The notes under the pieces: model-generated
What the model saw: only the letters and a program-made list of their open reading frames with translations
Told to the model about the DNA's origin: nothing
The model's database searches: none
In this document: positions 2,078-12,725 of the stretch, in pieces
Layout: each line of letters opens with the position of its first letter
Numbering within the stretch: the stretch's first letter is position 1
Source of the DNA: a virus
Lineage: Duplodnaviria; Heunggongvirae; Uroviricota; Caudoviricetes
Length of the DNA stretch: 12,725 nucleotides
IMG/VR virus record: IMGVR_UViG_2859827302_000006
Strand: one strand, 5' to 3'
Position numbers and translations under genes: made by a program

Positions 2078-2159
2078 AGGTTTCCGAAAATATCAACGGG
2101 TTAGGCTGGTTTCCCCGATGTTCGCCGCTGGCGAATTTCGAAAATATCAACCAGTTACC
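2078..2159. repeat. Imperfect direct repeats GGTTTCCGAAAATATCAAC / AATTTCGAAAATATCAAC, each next to a GTTACCGC motif
   Basis: Copies at 2078-2097 and 2133-2152; GTTACCGC at 2052-2059 and 2154-2161. The core GTTTCCG resembles the lambda cosB R-element core. Confidence 0.5.
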
Positions 2160-2436
2160 GCCGCAACCGCTCCGGCTTCTTCCAGTGGTACGTTATTTTT
2201 TCTTTCTCCCGATACAGTTCAACGCGGCGATTGTAGGCCAGCATTTCCAGAACGCGGATCCGTATGTCGCGCATATCAACATCATTAAGCTGGATACCAT
2301 CACGGCGCATCACCTCAGCAACAACACGCACATAATTTTCAGCGGTCACGCTGTCCGGCTGCGTGGCCTGTTCGTCATGCTGCTGGCTGATTCCGGCAAC
2401 GCGGCGGATTAATCGCAGTATTTCGGCTTCTGTCAT
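2155..2436 (-). CDS. Hypothetical protein (93 aa), last gene of the island before the non-coding terminus
   Basis: ATG at 2436 preceded by GGGGG 4-5 nt upstream; protein-like composition; the overlapping + strand ORF 2185-2412 looks like antisense noise. No recognisable motif. Confidence 0.55.
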   Translation of the reverse strand: MTEAEILRLIRRVAGISQQHDEQATQPDSVTAENYVRVVAEVMRRDGIQLNDVDMRDIRIRVLEMLAYNRRVELYREKEKITYHWKKPERLRR

Positions 2437-2470: not shown

Positions 2471-2535
2471 GGGTCCTTCCTGGAATTATGGCCCGTTACG
2501 GGGCGGCGACCTCGCGGTTTTTCGCTATTTATGAG
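2471..2535 (+). other. Lambda-type cos site (cos-1), cosN cohesive-end sequence GGGCGGCGACCT at 2501-2512, inverted relative to cos-2
   Basis: CCCGTTACGGGGCGGCGACCTCGCGGTTTTTCGCTATTTATGA matches the phage lambda cosN region and left-end leader with a one-base difference; the flank GGGTCCTTCCTGG resembles the lambda cosQ-side sequence. Confidence 0.75.
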
Positions 2536-2547
2536 CTTTTTTAGAGG

Positions 2548-2699
2548 GAGGTTGTTGTTTAATTGTTTGTCATATCCATTTGATAACTAAGTAAAAATAA
2601 AGAGCAATACAACAACCTGATAGTGTTTTTTTGATGCTAAAAATAAAAAAATGCTAATTGAATCAAATAGTTTTAAAAAAATACGTGGTTGTTGTATTG
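2548..2699. repeat. AT-rich region with three GGTTGTTGT elements (two direct, one inverted) on the cosB side of cos-1
   Basis: AGGTTGTTGTTT at 2549-2560; CAATACAACAACC at 2605-2617 is the exact reverse complement of GGTTGTTGTATTG at 2687-2699. Confidence 0.4.
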
Positions 2700-2729: not shown

Positions 2730-3170
2730 TTAACTTTGCTGTTCTGTAACGACTGATTGTTCCATGCTGGCACGGCGAACGCTTACGGCATGACGCCACC
2801 CAGCCAGAAAGCCAGCCATTTTATTTCGTGCCTTGCTCACATCTTCCGGTGAATAGCCGTAAATCTGCAAACCTTCATCAAATCGATGTTCTGTTTCTTC
2901 ACTGGAGTACTCGTCACGCTCAGATGAAAGCAGCCTGGCAAACATAATTTTTTCCAGCGCACTGGTTTCTACGTGATATCTGATGGCCTCAAGACGGCTT
3001 TTACCTGAAGACCAAAGCAATGTATGCCCGATGTGATAACCGCCAGACTTTCCGCGATCCGCATTAAGATACGGCATCCCCTGTTTGGTCCATGCGCGAA
3101 TAGTGGTTCTGTTAACCTTGAAATGTTCAGCTATTTCCTGCTGACTTACAAAACAAGCTTTATCAATCAT
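2730..3170 (-). CDS. Terminase small subunit homolog (lambda Nu1-like winged-HTH N-terminus); candidate packaging-redirection protein
   Basis: N-terminus QQEIAEHFKVNRTTIRAWTKQGMPYL parallels lambda Nu1 KKQLADIFGASIRTIQNWQEQGMPVL; ATG at 3170 with AAGGTA ribosome-binding site; cos-2 lies about 70 bp upstream, as in lambda cos-Nu1. At 146 aa it is shorter than Nu1 (181 aa). Confidence 0.85.
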   Translation of the reverse strand: MIDKACFVSQQEIAEHFKVNRTTIRAWTKQGMPYLNADRGKSGGYHIGHTLLWSSGKSRLEAIRYHVETSALEKIMFARLLSSERDEYSSEETEHRFDEGLQIYGYSPEDVSKARNKMAGFLAGWRHAVSVRRASMEQSVVTEQQS

Positions 3171-3240
3171 AATGTTACCTTAACCGCATGGTTAAATATT
3201 AATCAAGTGGTGGTGGTGTCACCTTCACGGAAAAACGTCA

Positions 3241-3300
3241 TAAATAGCGAAAACCCGCGAGGTCGCCGCCCCGTAACGGGTCCATATGCCGGAAAGGACC
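3241..3300 (-). other. Lambda-type cos site (cos-2) with cosQ-like flank, oriented toward the Nu1-like gene
   Basis: Minus-strand reading GGTCCTTTCCGG...CCCGTTACGGGGCGGCGACCTCGCGGGTTTTCGCTATTTATGA matches lambda cosQ/cosN/left-end sequence; cohesive-end 12-mer is the complement of 3260-3271. Confidence 0.8.
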
Positions 3301-3302
3301 CG

Positions 3303-3758: not shown

Positions 3759-4094
3759 TTATCGGGCCAGCGGCTGAACGGATACGCCAGAACCCGCAAA
3801 GGCGGCGCATTTTTTCGCATCGGTGTCGACGCTCTCGGGCCAGTTCACGGCGGCGATATTAAAGATCCCCGTCTTGTAGCACTGTGCTGATTTCTGCTTT
3901 GACGTGTCCACGGGGTACGAAGTCAGATAAACAGCCTTTCCGGACGCCTGACCATCCCACGGCTTAAACTCGCCATTGTCCGCCAGCATCAGCGGGGTAA
4001 ATTCCTGAATGACGCCAGCATCAGCGGCAAAATGTACCAGCGTCGTGGATACCTGCTGACTGCCTGCAAATAACTCAATGTATGGAGTGTTCAT
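3759..4094 (-). CDS. Head decoration protein homolog (lambda gpD-like), 111 aa
   Basis: Size matches gpD (110 aa); C-terminal YKTGIFNIAAVNWPESVDTDAKKCAAFAGSGVSV parallels gpD [35 protein letters not shown]; ATG at 4094 with GGGGGA ribosome-binding site. Confidence 0.7.
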   Translation of the reverse strand: MNTPYIELFAGSQQVSTTLVHFAADAGVIQEFTPLMLADNGEFKPWDGQASGKAVYLTSYPVDTSKQKSAQCYKTGIFNIAAVNWPESVDTDAKKCAAFAGSGVSVQPLAR

Positions 4095-4105
4095 AGAATC
4101 CCCCG

Positions 4106-5161
4106 TTAACCAATTTTGACGGTAACAAATTTGCGAATGTCTGCCGGCACCGGCTGCGGTGCGCTGTGCGTCTGCACGTACTCAATCGCCGGATCGCCGT
4201 CCTCAATCCAGTTTTTCGGGTAGTACATGTTTTGCGTTGCGCCCGTTCTTACCGCTTCCTGATCCATAATCGCACCATAAGCAACCAGCCCTTTATTGTT
4301 GGTGTTGCCCAAGACCAGCAAATCAGGCTCAAGGAAATGTTTTTCGGTGCCGTCGCTGTCGGCGTATTTGCCGGAATAGACGATAAGGGCAATATCGCCC
4401 AGATAGCCTTTAAAGCTCACCACTTCGCCCAGGTTTTTACAGGCCAGTTCTGCGGCGGATTCTGAACCACGGGAAAGATCGTACAGTTCGCGGAATTTTT
4501 TAAAGCTGCGTAACGTGCGCCATACCTCAGCGCCCATAATCATGACGTTTGCGGGGCAATTGCCCTGATCCGCATAAAGCTCGATATCATAGATTGGATC
4601 GTGGGTTTCTTTGTCCTGCTCGGACCATTTACGGCCTTTGGCCTGCTCTATGATGTTGTTTTCCGGCATCTTCCAGTCGATTTCATAGCGTTCTATGCCT
4701 TCGCCCTCAATGATGTTTTTTCCGGTCGTTACCGCATTTACCGCCAGCCATTCAACACGCGCTTTAATAGCGTTTACCTGGCGGCGCATGTTGCCAGTAA
4801 TCAGGCGCATACGGCGATAGGTTGGGTCGTTAAGCTGTGCCGGATCTTCTCCAGCCATGCGCATGATGGTTTTTGTTGGATCGATTTCGTGCTTTGGCTT
4901 CATGTAGCCAGGTTTAATCGTGCTGGTTTCGTACCCTTTATCGCGCTGTACCTGGCTACCAACCATAGGCGAGCAAAACGCTGACATAGTGACTTCTTCG
5001 GTGTCCAGGTTATCCAGCATGATGTTTTGGGTGTTGAATGTCGCTACTTTCGGGAAAAACAGCGTGGTAAACAGCGGACTAAATTTAAATTCCGCAATAT
5101 CCCCGCGATTCAGGTACGCAAAAAGCTGGTGAGTGTTAAGTGCCGTTGCTTTGCCTGCCAT
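4106..5161 (-). CDS. Major capsid protein homolog (lambda gpE family), 351 aa
   Basis: Collinear motif matches to lambda gpE along the length: KPGYMKPKHEIDP, RRMRLITGNMRR, SFKGYLGDIALIVYSGKY, FLEPDLLVLGNTNNKGL, YPKNWIEDGDPA; ATG at 5161 with GGGGGTG ribosome-binding site. All + strand ORFs inside it are antisense. Confidence 0.9.
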   Translation of the reverse strand: MAGKATALNTHQLFAYLNRGDIAEFKFSPLFTTLFFPKVATFNTQNIMLDNLDTEEVTMSAFCSPMVGSQVQRDKGYETSTIKPGYMKPKHEIDPTKTIMRMAGEDPAQLNDPTYRRMRLITGNMRRQVNAIKARVEWLAVNAVTTGKNIIEGEGIERYEIDWKMPENNIIEQAKGRKWSEQDKETHDPIYDIELYADQGNCPANVMIMGAEVWRTLRSFKKFRELYDLSRGSESAAELACKNLGEVVSFKGYLGDIALIVYSGKYADSDGTEKHFLEPDLLVLGNTNNKGLVAYGAIMDQEAVRTGATQNMYYPKNWIEDGDPAIEYVQTHSAPQPVPADIRKFVTVKIG

Positions 5162-6483: not shown

Positions 6484-6657
6484 TTTTTCAAGCGTCTCAC
6501 TTCGTCGCAGTTGGGATTTTCGGTTTTTCTATGTGTGTGTTTCATAAGTATTTTTTTACCCCTCACTTTTGAGGATGTATACAGGTCGAAAAGTGAGGGA
6601 GAGCGGGCTAATTTTGGCCCTCTTTCTATCCCCCTCGCTTTTGCTCCTCACTTTTAT
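6463..6657. repeat. Iteron array, putative replication origin: seven copies of CTCACTTTT (two variants, one inverted) around an AT-rich spacer
   Basis: Copies at 6465-6475, 6478-6488, 6495-6504 (variant), 6561-6570, 6589-6599 (inverted), 6634-6642 (variant) and 6646-6655; AT-rich stretch 6510-6560; lies directly 3-prime of the Rep ATPase gene. Confidence 0.6.
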
Positions 6658-8054
6658 AGCGGCGCTACATCATCCCCATCGATACGAATAACCCCATCTT
6701 TTTCCAGCTTGTACAGCCAGCGCCGGAAGTTTTTCATTTCATACCCCAGCTTTTTCATGTCATCACGTAACAGCGGGATCGTGCACTTGTCGCCGTTCTG
6801 TGTGCGTGAACGGATGCACCCCCATAGCGCGGTATGGTTTTCCGTCTTGTTCCCTGCCTCCTCGATGCGCTCCAGTTCAACAGGAGGGCGCGGATCATCC
6901 ACCACCACCAGCGACGTGATTAATTCACCGTCAGCGTCGGTAAAAAGCTCCACCACGCGTAAGTCATATGCGGCTTCTTTGAGTTCCTCCGCGTCCTTCA
7001 TTTTGGTGCATGAGATAACCAGCGCTTCGCTTCCTGCGTCCTCCCTGCGTATCCGGTATTCAGCATCCAGCGAAGCACGAAATGCACTGGAACCGCGCGC
7101 GCCTTTCGTCTCATCCTTGCCGGAATGGTGAACCACCAGCACCGTGGCCCCTGTGCGTCGTTTCAGTTCGTCACAACCACGGATAAACGCCCCCATATCA
7201 CGGGAATCATTTTCATCATTCCCACCAAAGCAACGCGCCAGCGTATCCAGAATAATCATGCGTACAGGTTTACCCGTTTCCCGCTCCACCTGACGGGCAG
7301 CGATAACCATTTCATCAACATCAAGCGGGGCAGCCGGAAAGATGGGGCGGTTTACCAGATACAGATTTTTCACCTGCTCATCGTGCACAACCTCCCAGGC
7401 TTTTACACGACGCGGAACACCTATACCGCCTTCACCAACCACATAGAGAACCGCACCATGTGCAACCCTGCGGCCTCCCCACTGGCGACCAGTGGCAACA
7501 TGGCACGCCCACGATCCGGCAAGGAATGATTTATAGGACCCGCTAGCTCCGTATATGCTGCATAGCGATACCGCCGGAATAATCCCCTTAACCACGTAAT
7601 CCAGTTGCGTGTCGTATCCGGTAGATCCAACGCTCATCGGTAGCGTGGTTTTTCGCTGGTGGTTTTTTTCTTCCGCCGGCTCTTTCCCGCGCACCCGTTC
7701 CAGGTATTCGCGCCAGTTCTCCCGCATATGGCTGTGCATCCCTTCGGGGTAATAATTCGCATCAGTTACACCCGCCGCCGCCAGCTTGTGCGCAATGGCA
7801 TTAATATTTGATGGCCTGATGTGGCCTGCCTTGTACAGCCGGACACAATAGCGCCCCTCGTCGATGATTCTCAGGTCTGCCAGTTCATCCAGTTGATCAT
7901 CAGCCAGCACAACGGGAGGCACATTATCGCCAGCCAGTCGCCCGTCCTGTTCCTGCCACTGTTTCGCATGTGCCCAGGCATCACTACCCGCAAAAATAAT
8001 GACTTCGGTCATCTTGTCGTAAGGCTGTTTTTTTAAGTTCGGTGCGCTTTTCAT
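6654..8054 (-). CDS. RepA-like RecA-fold (AAA_25-type) replication ATPase, putative initiator-helicase (466 aa)
   Basis: Walker A GASGSYKS, Walker B-like MIILDTLARCFGG, motif VLVVHHSGKD and a basic C-terminal region; ATG at 8054 with AGGGG ribosome-binding site and ATGA overlap with the upstream gene. The N-terminal 150 aa have no recognisable primase motifs. Confidence 0.85.
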   Translation of the reverse strand: MKSAPNLKKQPYDKMTEVIIFAGSDAWAHAKQWQEQDGRLAGDNVPPVVLADDQLDELADLRIIDEGRYCVRLYKAGHIRPSNINAIAHKLAAAGVTDANYYPEGMHSHMRENWREYLERVRGKEPAEEKNHQRKTTLPMSVGSTGYDTQLDYVVKGIIPAVSLCSIYGASGSYKSFLAGSWACHVATGRQWGGRRVAHGAVLYVVGEGGIGVPRRVKAWEVVHDEQVKNLYLVNRPIFPAAPLDVDEMVIAARQVERETGKPVRMIILDTLARCFGGNDENDSRDMGAFIRGCDELKRRTGATVLVVHHSGKDETKGARGSSAFRASLDAEYRIRREDAGSEALVISCTKMKDAEELKEAAYDLRVVELFTDADGELITSLVVVDDPRPPVELERIEEAGNKTENHTALWGCIRSRTQNGDKCTIPLLRDDMKKLGYEMKNFRRWLYKLEKDGVIRIDGDDVAPL

Positions 8055-9386: not shown

Positions 9387-9606
9387 GTACCCCTCCGCAT
9401 TTTTTTTCGTTAGAAATAAGCGTTCTTCTTTCCTGTTCATCGCTCAGGAATACGCAGACCTCACCGCTAAGGCGTTTAAGTAAGCCGATGATTGCCCCTG
9501 ATTCGCTGTCGGTCATCATGCTAGGGTAATCCTCTGCCAGTGCGCAAATAACTTCGATTTGGTGGGCGCGTTCTGCTGCCTGTTGTAGTGTGATTTCCTG
9601 GCTCAT
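9376..9606 (-). CDS. Hypothetical small protein (76 aa)
   Basis: ATG at 9606 overlaps the preceding stop (ATGA); GGGGG upstream. Confidence 0.5.
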   Translation of the reverse strand: MSQEITLQQAAERAHQIEVICALAEDYPSMMTDSESGAIIGLLKRLSGEVCVFLSDEQERRTLISNEKKCGGVHVQ

Positions 9607-9803
9607 AAGCCTACCCCCTGACGAATACGGGCAGCAAATACCATCACGCAGCCAGCCGGAGATTGCTGGCGTGCTTCCTGTTCGCTGGTGGCCTCAATGG
9701 TAATCACGCGCGGTTGTGCCGTGCTCAGGGCGATAAAACGCCAGATGTATTTATTCAGGTTGTGCGAGTCCCGCCCTTTCGGGTGTGTGGTATGATTTCT
9801 CAT
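9603..9803 (-). CDS. Hypothetical small protein (66 aa), first gene of the main leftward operon; it is the C-terminal part of the 428-codon stop-free frame
   Basis: In-frame ATG at 9803 with GAGG ribosome-binding site, about 90 nt downstream of the predicted minus-strand promoter. Confidence 0.4.
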   Translation of the reverse strand: MRNHTTHPKGRDSHNLNKYIWRFIALSTAQPRVITIEATSEQEARQQSPAGCVMVFAARIRQGVGL

Positions 9804-9900
9804 AGCTACCTCGATACTGTTGCTATCGTTGGTGGTTAGAAGCCCCGTTACTGCTCCTACAGTGCGGGGTTTCGTCGTTTCTGTGCCTTTCATCAATAAG

Positions 9901-9981
9901 GTGTAAGACACAATGTAAAACAATGGTGTCTTACACGTCAACCCTTCAAAATATTTTTTTTTCGTGTATATTGTCTTACAC
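9901..9981. promoter_or_regulatory. Divergent promoter/operator switch between the RHH gene (+) and the main operon (-)
   Basis: Inverted repeat GTGTAAGACAC (9901-9911) / GTGTCTTACAC (9926-9936) plus half-site GTCTTACAC (9973-9981); + promoter TTCAAA (9945-9950)-16 nt-TATATT (9967-9972); minus promoter TTGACG (complement of 9936-9941)-17 nt-TTACAT (complement of 9913-9918). Confidence 0.55.
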
Positions 9982-10002
9982 CAAAAACATGAGGGGTTAA
10001 AC

Positions 10003-10182
10003 ATGGCAACGGGTCCAAAGAATGCAAAATCACAATCTGTAACTGCACGTATTGCCCATGAAATTATTGAAGGCATGGAGAACGTGAAAGAAGAAGGCGA
10101 AAGCACGGGACAGTTTATAAACGCAGCCATGCGCGGCGAAATCAAACGCCGCCAGCGCCGCAAGGCCAAAGAGCAGGAGTAA
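10003..10182 (+). CDS. Ribbon-helix-helix (CopG/Arc/MetJ-like) DNA-binding protein, about 59 aa; candidate repressor of the switch
   Basis: ATG at 10003 with GAGGGG ribosome-binding site; the pattern SVTARIAHEIIEGMENVKEEGESTGQFINAAMRGEIKRR fits a beta-strand plus two helices; the ORF-track start at 9964 (GTG) lies inside the promoter. Confidence 0.7.
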   Translation: MATGPKNAKSQSVTARIAHEIIEGMENVKEEGESTGQFINAAMRGEIKRRQRRKAKEQE

Positions 10183-10224
10183 CCATCACCAGCGCCGTGG
10201 TGTGAGTAACTACGGCGCATTGCT

Positions 10225-10413
10225 ATGCAGGACAACACAATGACCGATAAAGAATTGACCAAAACATTATCACCGGCACGGAAAAGACGGCGCAGAAAGA
10301 TAGAGCATGAATCAGAAAGATTCGCGCCATGTGCTTTTGCCCTTGAGCAATTCCTTAAAGAGTACAGGGAAAAGCGCTCATTGCAGGTATGGCAACGAAC
10401 TGAACCAGACTGA
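10225..10413 (+). CDS. Possible small Arg/Lys-rich protein co-transcribed with the RHH gene (likely start ATG 10240)
   Basis: Weak AGGA ribosome-binding site; basic stretch ARKRRRRK; followed by a + strand terminator. Could instead be untranslated. Confidence 0.35.
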   Translation: MQDNTMTDKELTKTLSPARKRRRRKIEHESERFAPCAFALEQFLKEYREKRSLQVWQRTEPD

Positions 10414-10490
10414 TTGCATTGCCCACCAGCCGCAAATGTGGCATTATTGGCAATGCTCATGCGTTGGGGATAACGTGTAGCTTGTGTCGA

Positions 10491-10520
10491 GGGGCCACCG
10501 TAGCGGGTGGCCTTTGTTTT
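10491..10520 (+). terminator. Rho-independent terminator of the RHH transcription unit
   Basis: GGCCACC-GTAGCG-GGTGGCC (10493-10512) followed by TTTGTTTT; a second weaker hairpin plus T-run lies at about 10613-10646. Confidence 0.6.
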
Positions 10521-10526
10521 GCCCGT

Positions 10527-10889
10527 TATTCGGCAATTGTGGCGCTTCTCCACATGGTTGATATAATCCCACTGCTCAGATTCATTTTTTGCGCAGTAGG
10601 TTAATTGTTCACAAAGGCGCTCCGGCAACGGGGCGCTTTTTGTTTTTATTAGTTTGTAGAAACCTGACTCAGAGATAATGCTCATATTCTGATTGCCGTC
10701 AGGGGTGTAAGTTAAATTTACTCCCTTTTTATCATCAAACATCTGCAACGCTCTGGCGTTAACAATATTGGTTTCACTCCCGCCAGTAAGGCCGGAAATA
10801 ACCGGAATAATTTCGGCAAAATTTTGCAGATTCTGTTTTTCAGGACGAACGAAGCCCCGCCCTTGTTCGGGAGAATATCCAGTATTCAT
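10527..10889 (-). pseudogene. Possible decayed gene with a Bro-N-like antirepressor N-terminus; the frame runs on without a stop to 9603
   Basis: The first 95 or so codons look protein-like and include ISESGFYKLIKTKSAPLPE, reminiscent of the Bro-N motif; downstream the frame is antisense to the RHH operon and rich in C/S/R; weak ribosome-binding site. Confidence 0.3.
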
Positions 10890-10941: not shown

Positions 10942-11130
10942 TTAGTGAACTGCCTCGCAGCTGTCCTTCCATGCCAGAACTTCGGATAAAGACCAGCCAA
11001 CGGAACGACCGCCCAGCTTACGCCGTGATGGGAATTGTCCGGCTTTTTCCAGGCGGTACCGACATGAGCGGCTCAGGCCTGTAAGTTGCTGACATTCTTT
11101 TTCACGTATAAAGCGATCTGTGCTTAACAC
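10942..11130 (-). CDS. alpA: AlpA-family (prophage CP4-57 / P4 Vis-like) HTH transcriptional regulator, 62 aa
   Basis: FIREKECQQLTGLSRSCRYRLEKAGQFPSRRKLGGRSVGWSLSEVLAW fits the AlpA/MerR-like HTH pattern; GTG start at 11130 with GGGGGA ribosome-binding site; directly downstream of int. Confidence 0.8.
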   Translation of the reverse strand: MLSTDRFIREKECQQLTGLSRSCRYRLEKAGQFPSRRKLGGRSVGWSLSEVLAWKDSCEAVH

Positions 11131-11404: not shown

Positions 11405-11470
11405 TTTTAACCCGTTGTTCCATTTTGTTCCTTGTTGTTCGTCGTTGTGTCTCGTTGTTTCACGTTGTCC
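11405..11470. repeat. Six tandem 10-bp-phased GTTGT repeats between the int stop and alpA
   Basis: cccGTTGTTc / cattTTGTTc / cttGTTGTTc / gtcGTTGTGt / ctcGTTGTTt / cacGTTGTCc at 11411-11470, one per helical turn. Confidence 0.5.
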
Positions 11471-11495: not shown

Positions 11496-12725
11496 TTATA
11501 TTTCTCTGGCTATTGGCAATGTGGTTACGTTTTCATGTGTTCCCGCCAGTATCCCTAACCGCTCCGTCCACATATCCAGCGCGTCACGTTTCGCATCCAG
11601 ATAACGGGAATGGTTATAGACTCGTTGCATCCCTGGCATCTGATGACCTGTAAGCTGCTCCACGACGTGAGGATCCACGCCTAAATCGTTCAGCATCGTT
11701 GTAAAGGTGCGCCGGATGTCATGCAGTGACCAGTGAGGGTGTTTTAGCCTCCTGTGCGCTAATCTGCCGTACTGCGACACGCTTGTTTCCTGTTTCACTT
11801 CCCCCAGCAATAAGCCCGTGTGCCTGTTCTGCTCCACCAGCTGCGTGACGAACGGCAGTATTGCTTCCGGTATGGGCCGGAATATTGCCACCTTCGTTTT
11901 GCTGTGTTCTTTCGGCACGGTCCAGAGCATTTCGGTAAAATCCCACTCGCTGATCTCCGATAACCTCAGTTCTACCGTCCGGCATCCGAAAACAATCAGG
12001 AGGCGGATTAGTGCGACGTAGTAAGGGGAAAATATTTTTTTGTCCAGTGCCTGCAATAATTCGCCAAGTTCTTTGGTGCTTAAGACACGCTCGCTTATAT
12101 CCGGTTTTTTCCCAACGTCCGCCACACTCATATCATCAAGAACGTTGCTGATTGCATAGCGCCGCCTCCGGCAGAACTTAAGCGCCTGTTTGCACGTCTG
12201 TAGCAAGAATCCGGCAGTAACAGGCGTTCGCTTTGCCACCTGGTCAAAACAGGCCAGCCAGTGCCGTAGCTCGCATTTATCCAGCGGCATAGCACCAATG
12301 TGCTGTATTACGTGATTATTAAGGCGCTTTTTCAGGGCGGCATAATCCACGCGGTTTTCCTTTACGTAAGACTCAAGCCAGTAGGTAAGCGCATCGCCAA
12401 CCGTTACGGGCTTTAACGCTTTCTGTACGGTGTAATTCATCTCATGACGTGGATTTTTCCCCTCAGCAAGCCAAGCGCGACACTGTGCCGCTTTTTCCCT
12501 GGCAGCTTTCAGACTCAGATCAGGATAATTTCCCAGCTTAATCCGTTCCGGTCGTGCTCCCCTTCCCGTTCCGGCCCTGTAGGTGAAATACCAGGTTAAA
12601 AGGCCGCTGGTTGAATGCCTGACGCTCAGGTTTCCACCGTCATTAAGAAAGGCTGTTTTTTGGGCGGGTGTGCCGTTGATTTTCCTTAGCTGTGTATCAC
12701 TCAGTTTGTTAAGTGCTCTGCGCAT
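11496..12725 (-). CDS. int: Tyrosine site-specific integrase, P4-type (409 aa); start codon at the window edge
   Basis: N-terminal arm-binding region with the LNDGGNLSV motif (compare P4 Int LADGGGLYL); C-terminal catalytic signature with R in GCRTVELR, HxxR in LHDIRRTF and the Tyr region GHQMPGMQRVYNHSRYL. Confidence 0.92.
   Translation of the reverse strand: MRRALNKLSDTQLRKINGTPAQKTAFLNDGGNLSVRHSTSGLLTWYFTYRAGTGRGARPERIKLGNYPDLSLKAAREKAAQCRAWLAEGKNPRHEMNYTVQKALKPVTVGDALTYWLESYVKENRVDYAALKKRLNNHVIQHIGAMPLDKCELRHWLACFDQVAKRTPVTAGFLLQTCKQALKFCRRRRYAISNVLDDMSVADVGKKPDISERVLSTKELGELLQALDKKIFSPYYVALIRLLIVFGCRTVELRLSEISEWDFTEMLWTVPKEHSKTKVAIFRPIPEAILPFVTQLVEQNRHTGLLLGEVKQETSVSQYGRLAHRRLKHPHWSLHDIRRTFTTMLNDLGVDPHVVEQLTGHQMPGMQRVYNHSRYLDAKRDALDMWTERLGILAGTHENVTTLPIAREI

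Follow-up and report, generated by a model that had tools for sequence, protein, structure and literature searches.

The three copies of GGTTGTTGT that lie beside one of the two cos sites in this stretch of DNA (the window, 12,725 bp in its full length) are probably the R3, R2 and R1 boxes of a complete lambda-type cos site, here called cos-1, with the packaging specificity of phage N15 and of the Monarch group of prophages. Judged by sequence comparison, they would serve as docking sites for the small terminase (TerS) of a helper phage and would give the island that carries them a second entry to packaging, independent of the redirecting phage packaging protein, Rpp. Most likely, a helper with N15/Monarch specificity could use the boxes to package the island and would need no Rpp for it. 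The type of box and its role in TerS recognition are known from N15 and Monarch, and the layout with two cos sites from EcCICFT073, so that the element itself is ordinary; what appears to be new, in a modest way, is that the second cos is a copy, lacking terS, of the cos site of a specific prophage family and that it varies between similar islands. An earlier note on this DNA had recorded the repeats and taken them for sites of the TerS type, and this observation holds, but its reading of them as island-specific elements, bound by a Nu1-like protein of the island and linked to a repeat array near int, does not.

The island and the anatomy of cos-1

The window begins with phoQ (1–1461) and continues into a phage-inducible chromosomal island, all of whose genes are on the minus strand. 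They include int (11496–12725), alpA (10942–11130), an SSB gene, and genes for a RepA-type helicase (6654–8054), a lambda-E-like capsid protein (4106–5161) and a D-like decoration protein (3759–4094), together with a 137-aa ORF, rpp (2730–3170, 146 aa) and a conserved 93-aa ORF of family phrog_1561 (2155–2436). The last of these borders cos-1 on its cosQ side, as it does in all of the related islands (L003, L004, L005, L007 and L010 to L014). Closely related to EcCICFT073, the island occupies the same phoQ–roxA site; the insertion junction, ATAAATATG(T/C)CC at 1459–1470, comes directly after the phoQ stop codon (compare the 75-bp phoQ–roxA intergenic region of K-12). The right junction is at about 22372–22385 in locus L001, where the island is ~11 kb long and only ~22 bp separate the start codon of int from the arm repeat near the island end.

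The left half of cos-1 contains a cosQ-like heptamer, GGGTCCT (2471–2477, plus strand), that begins 30 bp upstream of the cohesive end; the right end of lambda has cosQ at an equal spacing. The sequence CGGGTCCTT in the cosQ region is unchanged in all six of the cos sites in one of our alignments (A1). The 12-nt cohesive-end sequence of cosN, GGGCGGCGACCT (2501–2512, plus strand), is identical to bp 1–12 of lambda, and the cosN 17-mer GGGCGGCGACCTCGCGG is found exactly at 2501–2517 (plus strand) and a second time at 3255–3271 (minus strand), within the other cos site, cos-2. Since the two copies of cosN are inverted, the cosB sides of cos-1 and cos-2 face each other across rpp.

As claimed in the earlier note, three repeats lie beside cos-1, and these are the only exact copies of GGTTGTTGT in the window. 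They are at 2550–2558 (plus strand), 2609–2617 (minus strand) and 2687–2695 (plus strand), all adjoining cosN, and the sole match with one mismatch is at 4868. Chance would give ~0.10 copies over the full window and 0.004 over the 293 bp of the intergenic region, and 29 of 5000 first-order Markov simulations of that region gave some 9-mer with three non-overlapping copies. Counted from the cohesive end the copies start at bp 50 (plus), 109 (minus) and 187 (plus), which is the R3/R2/R1 layout of lambda cosB. The R3 box occupies 2548–2563 on the plus strand (bp 48–63), the inverted R2 box 2604–2617, where the minus strand reads GGTTGTTGTATTGC (bp 104–117), and the R1 box, again GGTTGTTGTATTGC, 2687–2700 on the plus strand (bp 187–200). 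R2, written GCAATACAACAACC at 2604–2617, and R1 form a perfect inverted pair that had been put at 13 bp and proves to be one base longer, 14 bp, and the perfect inverted pair of R3 and R2 is 10 bp long.

The cosB of lambda, to which gpNu1 binds, shares with cos-1 its architecture, the orientations of its boxes and the distances of R3 and R2 from cosN (the lambda boxes start at 53, 109 and 155), whereas R1 of cos-1 is ~32 bp further out and the lambda box sequence, CGTTTCCnTTCT, is unrelated. The annotated R boxes of phage 21 (49–64, 106–121 and 149–164) are in a register that parallels the 50/109/187 of cos-1. The divergence of cos-1 from lambda and from cos-2, to which the earlier note had also drawn attention, is real: past bp 44 from the cohesive end the identity is near that of random sequence, with 43 of 156 positions identical to lambda and 34 of 156 to cos-2.

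The spacers between the boxes contain a candidate IHF site equivalent to I1 (between R3 and R2: TATCAAATGGATA, 2573–2585, minus strand, one mismatch to WATCAANNNNTTR) and a second IHF-like block (between R2 and R1: AATCAAATAGTTT, 2661–2673, plus strand, one mismatch to the IHF consensus). Matches to the IHF consensus with one mismatch are not enriched over chance across the window and the candidate I1 site is weak as a consensus match on its own. In an alignment of nine homologs (A5), the block TATC...TTGATAA.TAA at the first of the sites is invariant, as is ACACAACAACCT in the R2 box; ATCAAAT.GTTTT..AAAAA is kept, this segment being 84 % identical as against 49–60 % in the adjacent spacers, and the R1 box is 92 % conserved.

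Packaging specificity and the prophage homologs

Positions 2548–2563 of the window, the R3 box, are the same as N15 bp 48–63 (gaggttgttgtttaat), base for base and in the same register. The R3 of N15 is located at bp 48–59 (GAGGTT GTTGTT), where block mutations cut the yield ~7-fold (bp 48–53) and ~100-fold (bp 54–59) (PMC4669245), and this N15-type R-box, GAGGTTGTTGTT, is present without change at 2548–2559. The N15-like prophages of the Monarch group have a tripartite cosB (R3, an IHF site, R2 and R1) and the recognition helix of N15 TerS, on which ground the packaging specificity of N15 is probably common to both (PMC4669245). We compared Monarch by its published description, with prophages of the L002 type standing in for its sequence; its layout of R3, IHF site, R2 and R1 is also that of cos-1, where the IHF site is a candidate, and the prophage homologs of cos-1 encode a TerS with the N15 recognition helix. 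There are differences too. The cosN of N15 departs from the lambda-type GGGCGGCGACCT of cos-1 at bp 9 and 12, and N15 has only R3 and a remote rR2 where cos-1 has R3, R2 and R1; unlike the sites of N15 and Monarch, moreover, cos-1 has no terS, is carried by a phage satellite and lies inverted behind rpp. The R3/R2/R1 geometry and the identity with N15 R3 support the earlier suggestion that the repeats are small-terminase recognition elements that set packaging specificity.

Prophages have the same tripartite cosB upstream of terS and terL, and of 5426 complete E. coli genomes 299 contain homologs of the cosB side of cos-1 (~35 at an identity of at least 95 %, ~264 at 60–90 %), so that the boxes cannot be called island-specific. 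When seven homologs were sampled from the 60–90 % band, six were found to adjoin terS on its upstream side. These seven and L002 make up a set of eight diverged copies, seven of which (L002 and L015 to L020) are in prophages that have cos, terS (168 aa) and terL, with the portal gene too in L002, although terS is annotated as truncated or partial in two of the seven; the eighth, L014, sits in another island. Identity to the window among the eight is 92.9 % in the box columns and 65.0 % in the other columns between R3 and R1, and the R3 core is 97 % conserved. The alignment of cos-1 with the prophage cos sites runs from cosN to just before the start codon of terS, which in the prophages is ~35 bp downstream of R1. 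The similarity weakens after R1 and is gone before the terS start; there is no terS behind the cosB of cos-1, which is followed by the 3′ end of rpp on the opposite strand.

The TerS proteins of these prophages and of N15 have in common the recognition helix ISVQAFDKW and an N-terminal segment, NKSDMASS(I/L)GISVQAFDKWGV, in which lambda Nu1, phage 21 gp1 and Rpp differ from them. The window encodes no TerS with ISVQAFDKW, and Rpp, with VNRTTIRAW, is the only TerS-like protein in it; with no cognate TerS encoded there, a helper phage must supply the protein in trans. The O157:H7 and O6 sibling islands have a 180-aa TerS of their own (helix VSATAFDKW, 50 % identical to L002 TerS) and boxes of the sequence GGTTGGTGT, and overall the box sequence tracks the DNA-binding domain of TerS. 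The phage collection contains no isolated E. coli phage other than N15 with a TerS DNA-binding domain of the N15/Monarch type, and DNA searches of it with cos-1 or with the L002 cos gave matches to cosQ and cosN only. We note that in the OkiPb01703 prophage (L017, 862–1097) a Monarch-type cosB is joined to a different cohesive-end region, GGGGTCGGTAGACGCGCAAAAACGCGC, from which it follows that cosN and cosB have been exchanged separately.

The gene for the Nu1-like protein, whose binding to the boxes the earlier note had proposed to test, is rpp, whose product carries the helix VNRTTIRAW rather than ISVQAFDKW and is paired with cos-2. It matches the structure of RppC (PDB 6hlk, E 5.7e-31) and is close to identical with its homolog in CFT073. 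cos-2 (3207–3301, minus strand; cosQ 3301–3295, cohesive end 3271–3260) corresponds to the published 'cos1' of EcCICFT073, with one mismatch to CFT073 over 3207–3301. The proposed Rpp site in it is at bp 48–65 (3224–3207), with the core ACCACCACC, and rpp starts at bp 102, where its start codon is also placed in PICI-C (Murialdo and Feiss). An Rpp-dependent cos of this kind (the published 'cos1', with its site at bp 48–65; Murialdo and Feiss 2022) resembles cos-1 in its island family, cosQ and cosN, but has a single proposed site with the core ACCACCACC directly upstream of rpp, which is the arrangement of cos-2. At bp 55–63 cos-1 has GTTGTTTAA and not the Rpp core, and it points at the 3′ end of rpp. 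No island protein is implicated in recognition of the boxes.

Read as its complement, the Rpp core ACCACCACC is (GGT)3. Equally far from cosN there are (GGT)4–5 on the other strand in the TerS-encoding siblings (L003, 3075–3100) and (GTT)3 in N15/Monarch. Within this clade the box sequences look like triplet-repeat variants related to one another.

A proposed second route of packaging and the alleles of the second cos

If the boxes work as their likeness to those of N15 and Monarch suggests, the winged helix-turn-helix of the helper TerS (ISVQAFDKW), supplied by a lambdoid phage of the Monarch/N15 type, would dock on them. By analogy with lambda, 21 and N15, a TerS dimer would bind R3 together with the inverted R2, spanning a spacer bent by IHF, and R1 would add stability. 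TerS would then place TerL on cosN (2501–2512), the concatemer would be nicked there, and packaging would run rightwards, in the plus direction and towards rpp, until the next cos-1. The island would in this way have two packaging entries: cos-2, used through Rpp–TerS heterodimers with helpers of the lambda, phi80 or 21 type, and cos-1, which would mimic the cos of the helper itself and would need no Rpp when the helper has N15/Monarch specificity. If this is true, satellites would draw on two strategies of packaging, in one of which Rpp redirects the phage machinery and in the other the helper cos is imitated. There is a likeness to the cos-type SaPIs such as SaPIbov5, satellites that carry a copy of the helper cos and use the unmodified helper terminase (PMC6092414), although the sequences and hosts are unrelated and here the mimicking cos stands beside one that is redirected by Rpp.

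Work on EcCICFT073 bears on both entries. Transfer by lambda and phi80 requires its rpp-proximal cos1, the site that an RppA–TerS heterocomplex recognises, whereas cos2 is dispensable and its deletion raised lambda-mediated transfer; no phage cosB was found in cos1 or cos2, and use of the cos2 cosB was not promoted by RppA (PMC6092414, PMC6739421). With a lambda-specific terminase the yield from N15-specific DNA is ~5e-4 of that from self-specific DNA (PMC4669245, Table 6), so that cos-1 should be nearly silent with lambda, and the equivalent site of CFT073, which has a different cosB allele, is likewise dispensable with lambda and phi80 (PMC6092414, PMC6739421). Because the second cos of CFT073 is dispensable and its deletion raised transfer by lambda, the benefit of cos-1 is putative. 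Rpp might, moreover, capture a Monarch-type TerS too and so block the use of cos-1. Another copy of the N15/Monarch cosB is present in 3 of the 35 genomes that bear the allele, against a background of ~5 %, which gives no sign of prophage co-residence.

The slot occupied by cos-1 is that of the EcCICFT073 'cos2' (Fillol-Salom et al. 2018, 2019): in both islands an inverted second cos separates the 93-aa ORF from the 3′ end of rpp (alignment A4), and the left half, from cosQ to cosN, is alike. From about bp 20–40 onwards, however, they are different alleles, CFT073 having no GGTTGTTGT but boxes of the PhiR12 type, CATGTCCGGTT, where the window has N15/Monarch boxes. The CFT073 cos2 (L007, 2401–2600) contains three CATGTCCGGTT boxes and aligns through them with a prophage cos (L023, 862–1578), from which the island diverges after the boxes, ~40–50 bp before terS. 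The cosB and terS start of L023 are 100 % identical to those of the isolated phages PhiR12_1-5; TerS of the PhiR12 type has a distinct N-terminal DNA-binding domain, and homologs of the CFT073-type cosB are found in ~1185 of 5426 genomes.

The CATGTCCGGTT allele is present in CFT073, 042 and STEC434, and the N15/Monarch allele in the window and in the islands of LH50-c (by allC), SW4848 (by a tqsA remnant) and strain 135 (by yejO), the version in strain 135 being more prophage-like. A second inverted cosN is found in the TerS-encoding O157 and O6 islands too (L003 and L004). In that of O157:H7 EC4115 (L003, 3735–3910) it is accompanied by a third type of box, GTCAGATCC(G/T)(A/T)TCT, three times in the R3/R2/R1 layout; the source of this allele is traced only as far as a 71 % match, to the sequence that precedes nu1 in phage SerU-LTIIb. 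The first two alleles are independent of the integration site, and the switch point between them is inside cosN.

The island copies of the N15/Monarch allele are 99.5–100 % identical to one another, and between LH50-c and the window the cosB is 99.5 % identical while rpp is 90.9 %, the 93-aa ORF 85.5 % and the neighbours overall 85–94 % identical, a pattern that fits exchange at the level of the cassette. L001 is 98–100 % identical to the window to the right of 2437, 93 % in the 93-aa ORF and ~90 % at the left end. By these comparisons the islands are mosaic. As for the origin of the layout, we set aside the idea that the rpp segment had been inverted between the two inverted copies of cosN, since both isomers have two inverted cos sites.

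We suggest tentatively, and with less than even confidence, that the second inverted cos of the EcCICFT073 family is an exchangeable 'helper adaptor' cassette, which for each class of helper would open a route independent of Rpp or of the island's own TerS. At least three alleles exist, and two of them, the N15/Monarch and PhiR12-type alleles, each reproduce a cosB of a distinct lambdoid TerS specificity group in its R boxes and their spacing but leave out terS. Such a cassette would widen the range of helpers and explain 'cos2', a class of sites that published work left without a role and that would gain both an identity and a role open to test. If it works as proposed, the cosB allele could indicate which helpers these virulence-associated satellites are able to use.

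Set against these readings is the view that cos-1 and its boxes are a non-functional recombination relic, acquired from a Monarch-type prophage at the shared cosN and intact because the event is recent, which we consider unlikely. It would agree with the switch of alleles inside the shared cosN, as expected of homologous recombination with co-resident phages, with the strain 135 copy being nearer to the prophage version and with the dispensability of the CFT073 equivalent with lambda and phi80; the divergence among the island copies is, besides, too low to show constraint. It accounts less readily for a site in which all subsites (cosQ, cosN, R3, the I1-like block, R2 and R1) are intact, for a junction, much the same in all type A islands, that cuts terS off close to its start, and for three different complete cosB alleles in one slot of related islands. 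In LH50-c the cassette is 99.5 % conserved while the neighbouring genes are 9–15 % diverged. Both cos sites of CFT073, finally, supported phage-mediated transfer, since only the double deletion abolished it.

The int–alpA array and other features of the island

A phased array between int and alpA had been linked to the boxes in the earlier note, which proposed that one protein acts at both places. The array is real and comprises six units of GTTGT/ACAAC with a 10-bp phase, downstream of int at 11411–11470. There is no match to the 9-bp box within it at one mismatch or fewer. When motif enrichment was checked over the whole window, GTTGTK occurred 22 times against 16.4 expected and GTTGTTG four times against 2.3, neither being enriched, and the enrichment of RAACAAS was not significant; the weight here rests on local clustering and cross-genome conservation and not on window-wide enrichment. 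The int–alpA region of CFT073, array included, has one mismatch to the window in ~390 bp. The unit of the array, RAACAAS (for example ACAACGTGAAACAA), is common to a 75-bp repeat near both ends of the island (1543–1617 in the window; 22226–22300 in L001, just upstream of int), which contains two copies of TTRACTACACC followed by three of the phased unit. With the array of CFT073 near-identical in the absence of GGTTGTTGT, and with the match to the island ends, we reject a common binding protein for cos-1 and the array.

It is accordingly highly improbable that an island protein (the Nu1-like Rpp, AlpA or Int) recognises GTTGT repeats at cos-1 and in the array and that the boxes are specific to the island. 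GTTGT does occur in both places and Rpp does have a TerS-like winged helix-turn-helix, but CFT073 has the same Rpp DNA-binding domain, AlpA–int region and array without the boxes, the repeats of the array are direct and phased at 10 bp rather than laid out as R3/R2/R1, and they match the island-end repeats instead. The boxes, for their part, are found mainly in prophages upstream of terS, and RppA gave no promotion of the cosB of the second cos in CFT073. Int has an arm-binding domain and AlpA activates its own promoter (PMC6092414); together with the end repeats these make it more likely that the array belongs to the recombination or regulation apparatus of the island, and the units of the array and of the 75-bp repeat are probably Int arm-type or AlpA/Vis-like binding sites.

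Nor do we give much credence to the idea that a cosB of phage type acts as a decoy, which would titrate the helper TerS or cause unproductive cutting and would not serve the packaging of the island. Interference with helper packaging is common among satellite islands, and the rise in lambda-mediated transfer on deletion of the CFT073 site suggests that the site is costly with a lambda helper. A single site in each 11-kb unit, however, is poorly suited to titration, binding to a complete cos that has cosQ and cosN would end in the packaging of island DNA, and Rpp already provides interference. That the repeats belong to a promoter or operator of the 93-aa ORF (2155–2436, minus strand), upstream of which this AT-rich region (41 % G+C) lies, or arose there by chance, is scarcely credible, for no sigma-70-like site was found in a scan of 2437–2729, the boxes are kept in prophages that have no 93-aa ORF and whose downstream gene is on the other strand, and both the expected number of copies and the simulations make chance unlikely.

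Two other features of the island were observed. The 428-aa ORF at 9603–10889 (minus strand) has a C-terminal match to the phage 'transcriptional repressor' family phrog_6196 and a weak Ant-like stretch at its N-terminus; its absence from the same position in CFT073 and 2017C-4173W12 points to a variable cargo or regulatory module. A 22-bp direct repeat, TT(C/T)CGAAAATATCAAC(G/C)(G/A)GTTA, is present in two copies, at 2082–2103 and 2136–2157, at or just past the 3′ end of the 93-aa ORF, and each contains a perfect IHF consensus; L001 has a third, weaker copy.
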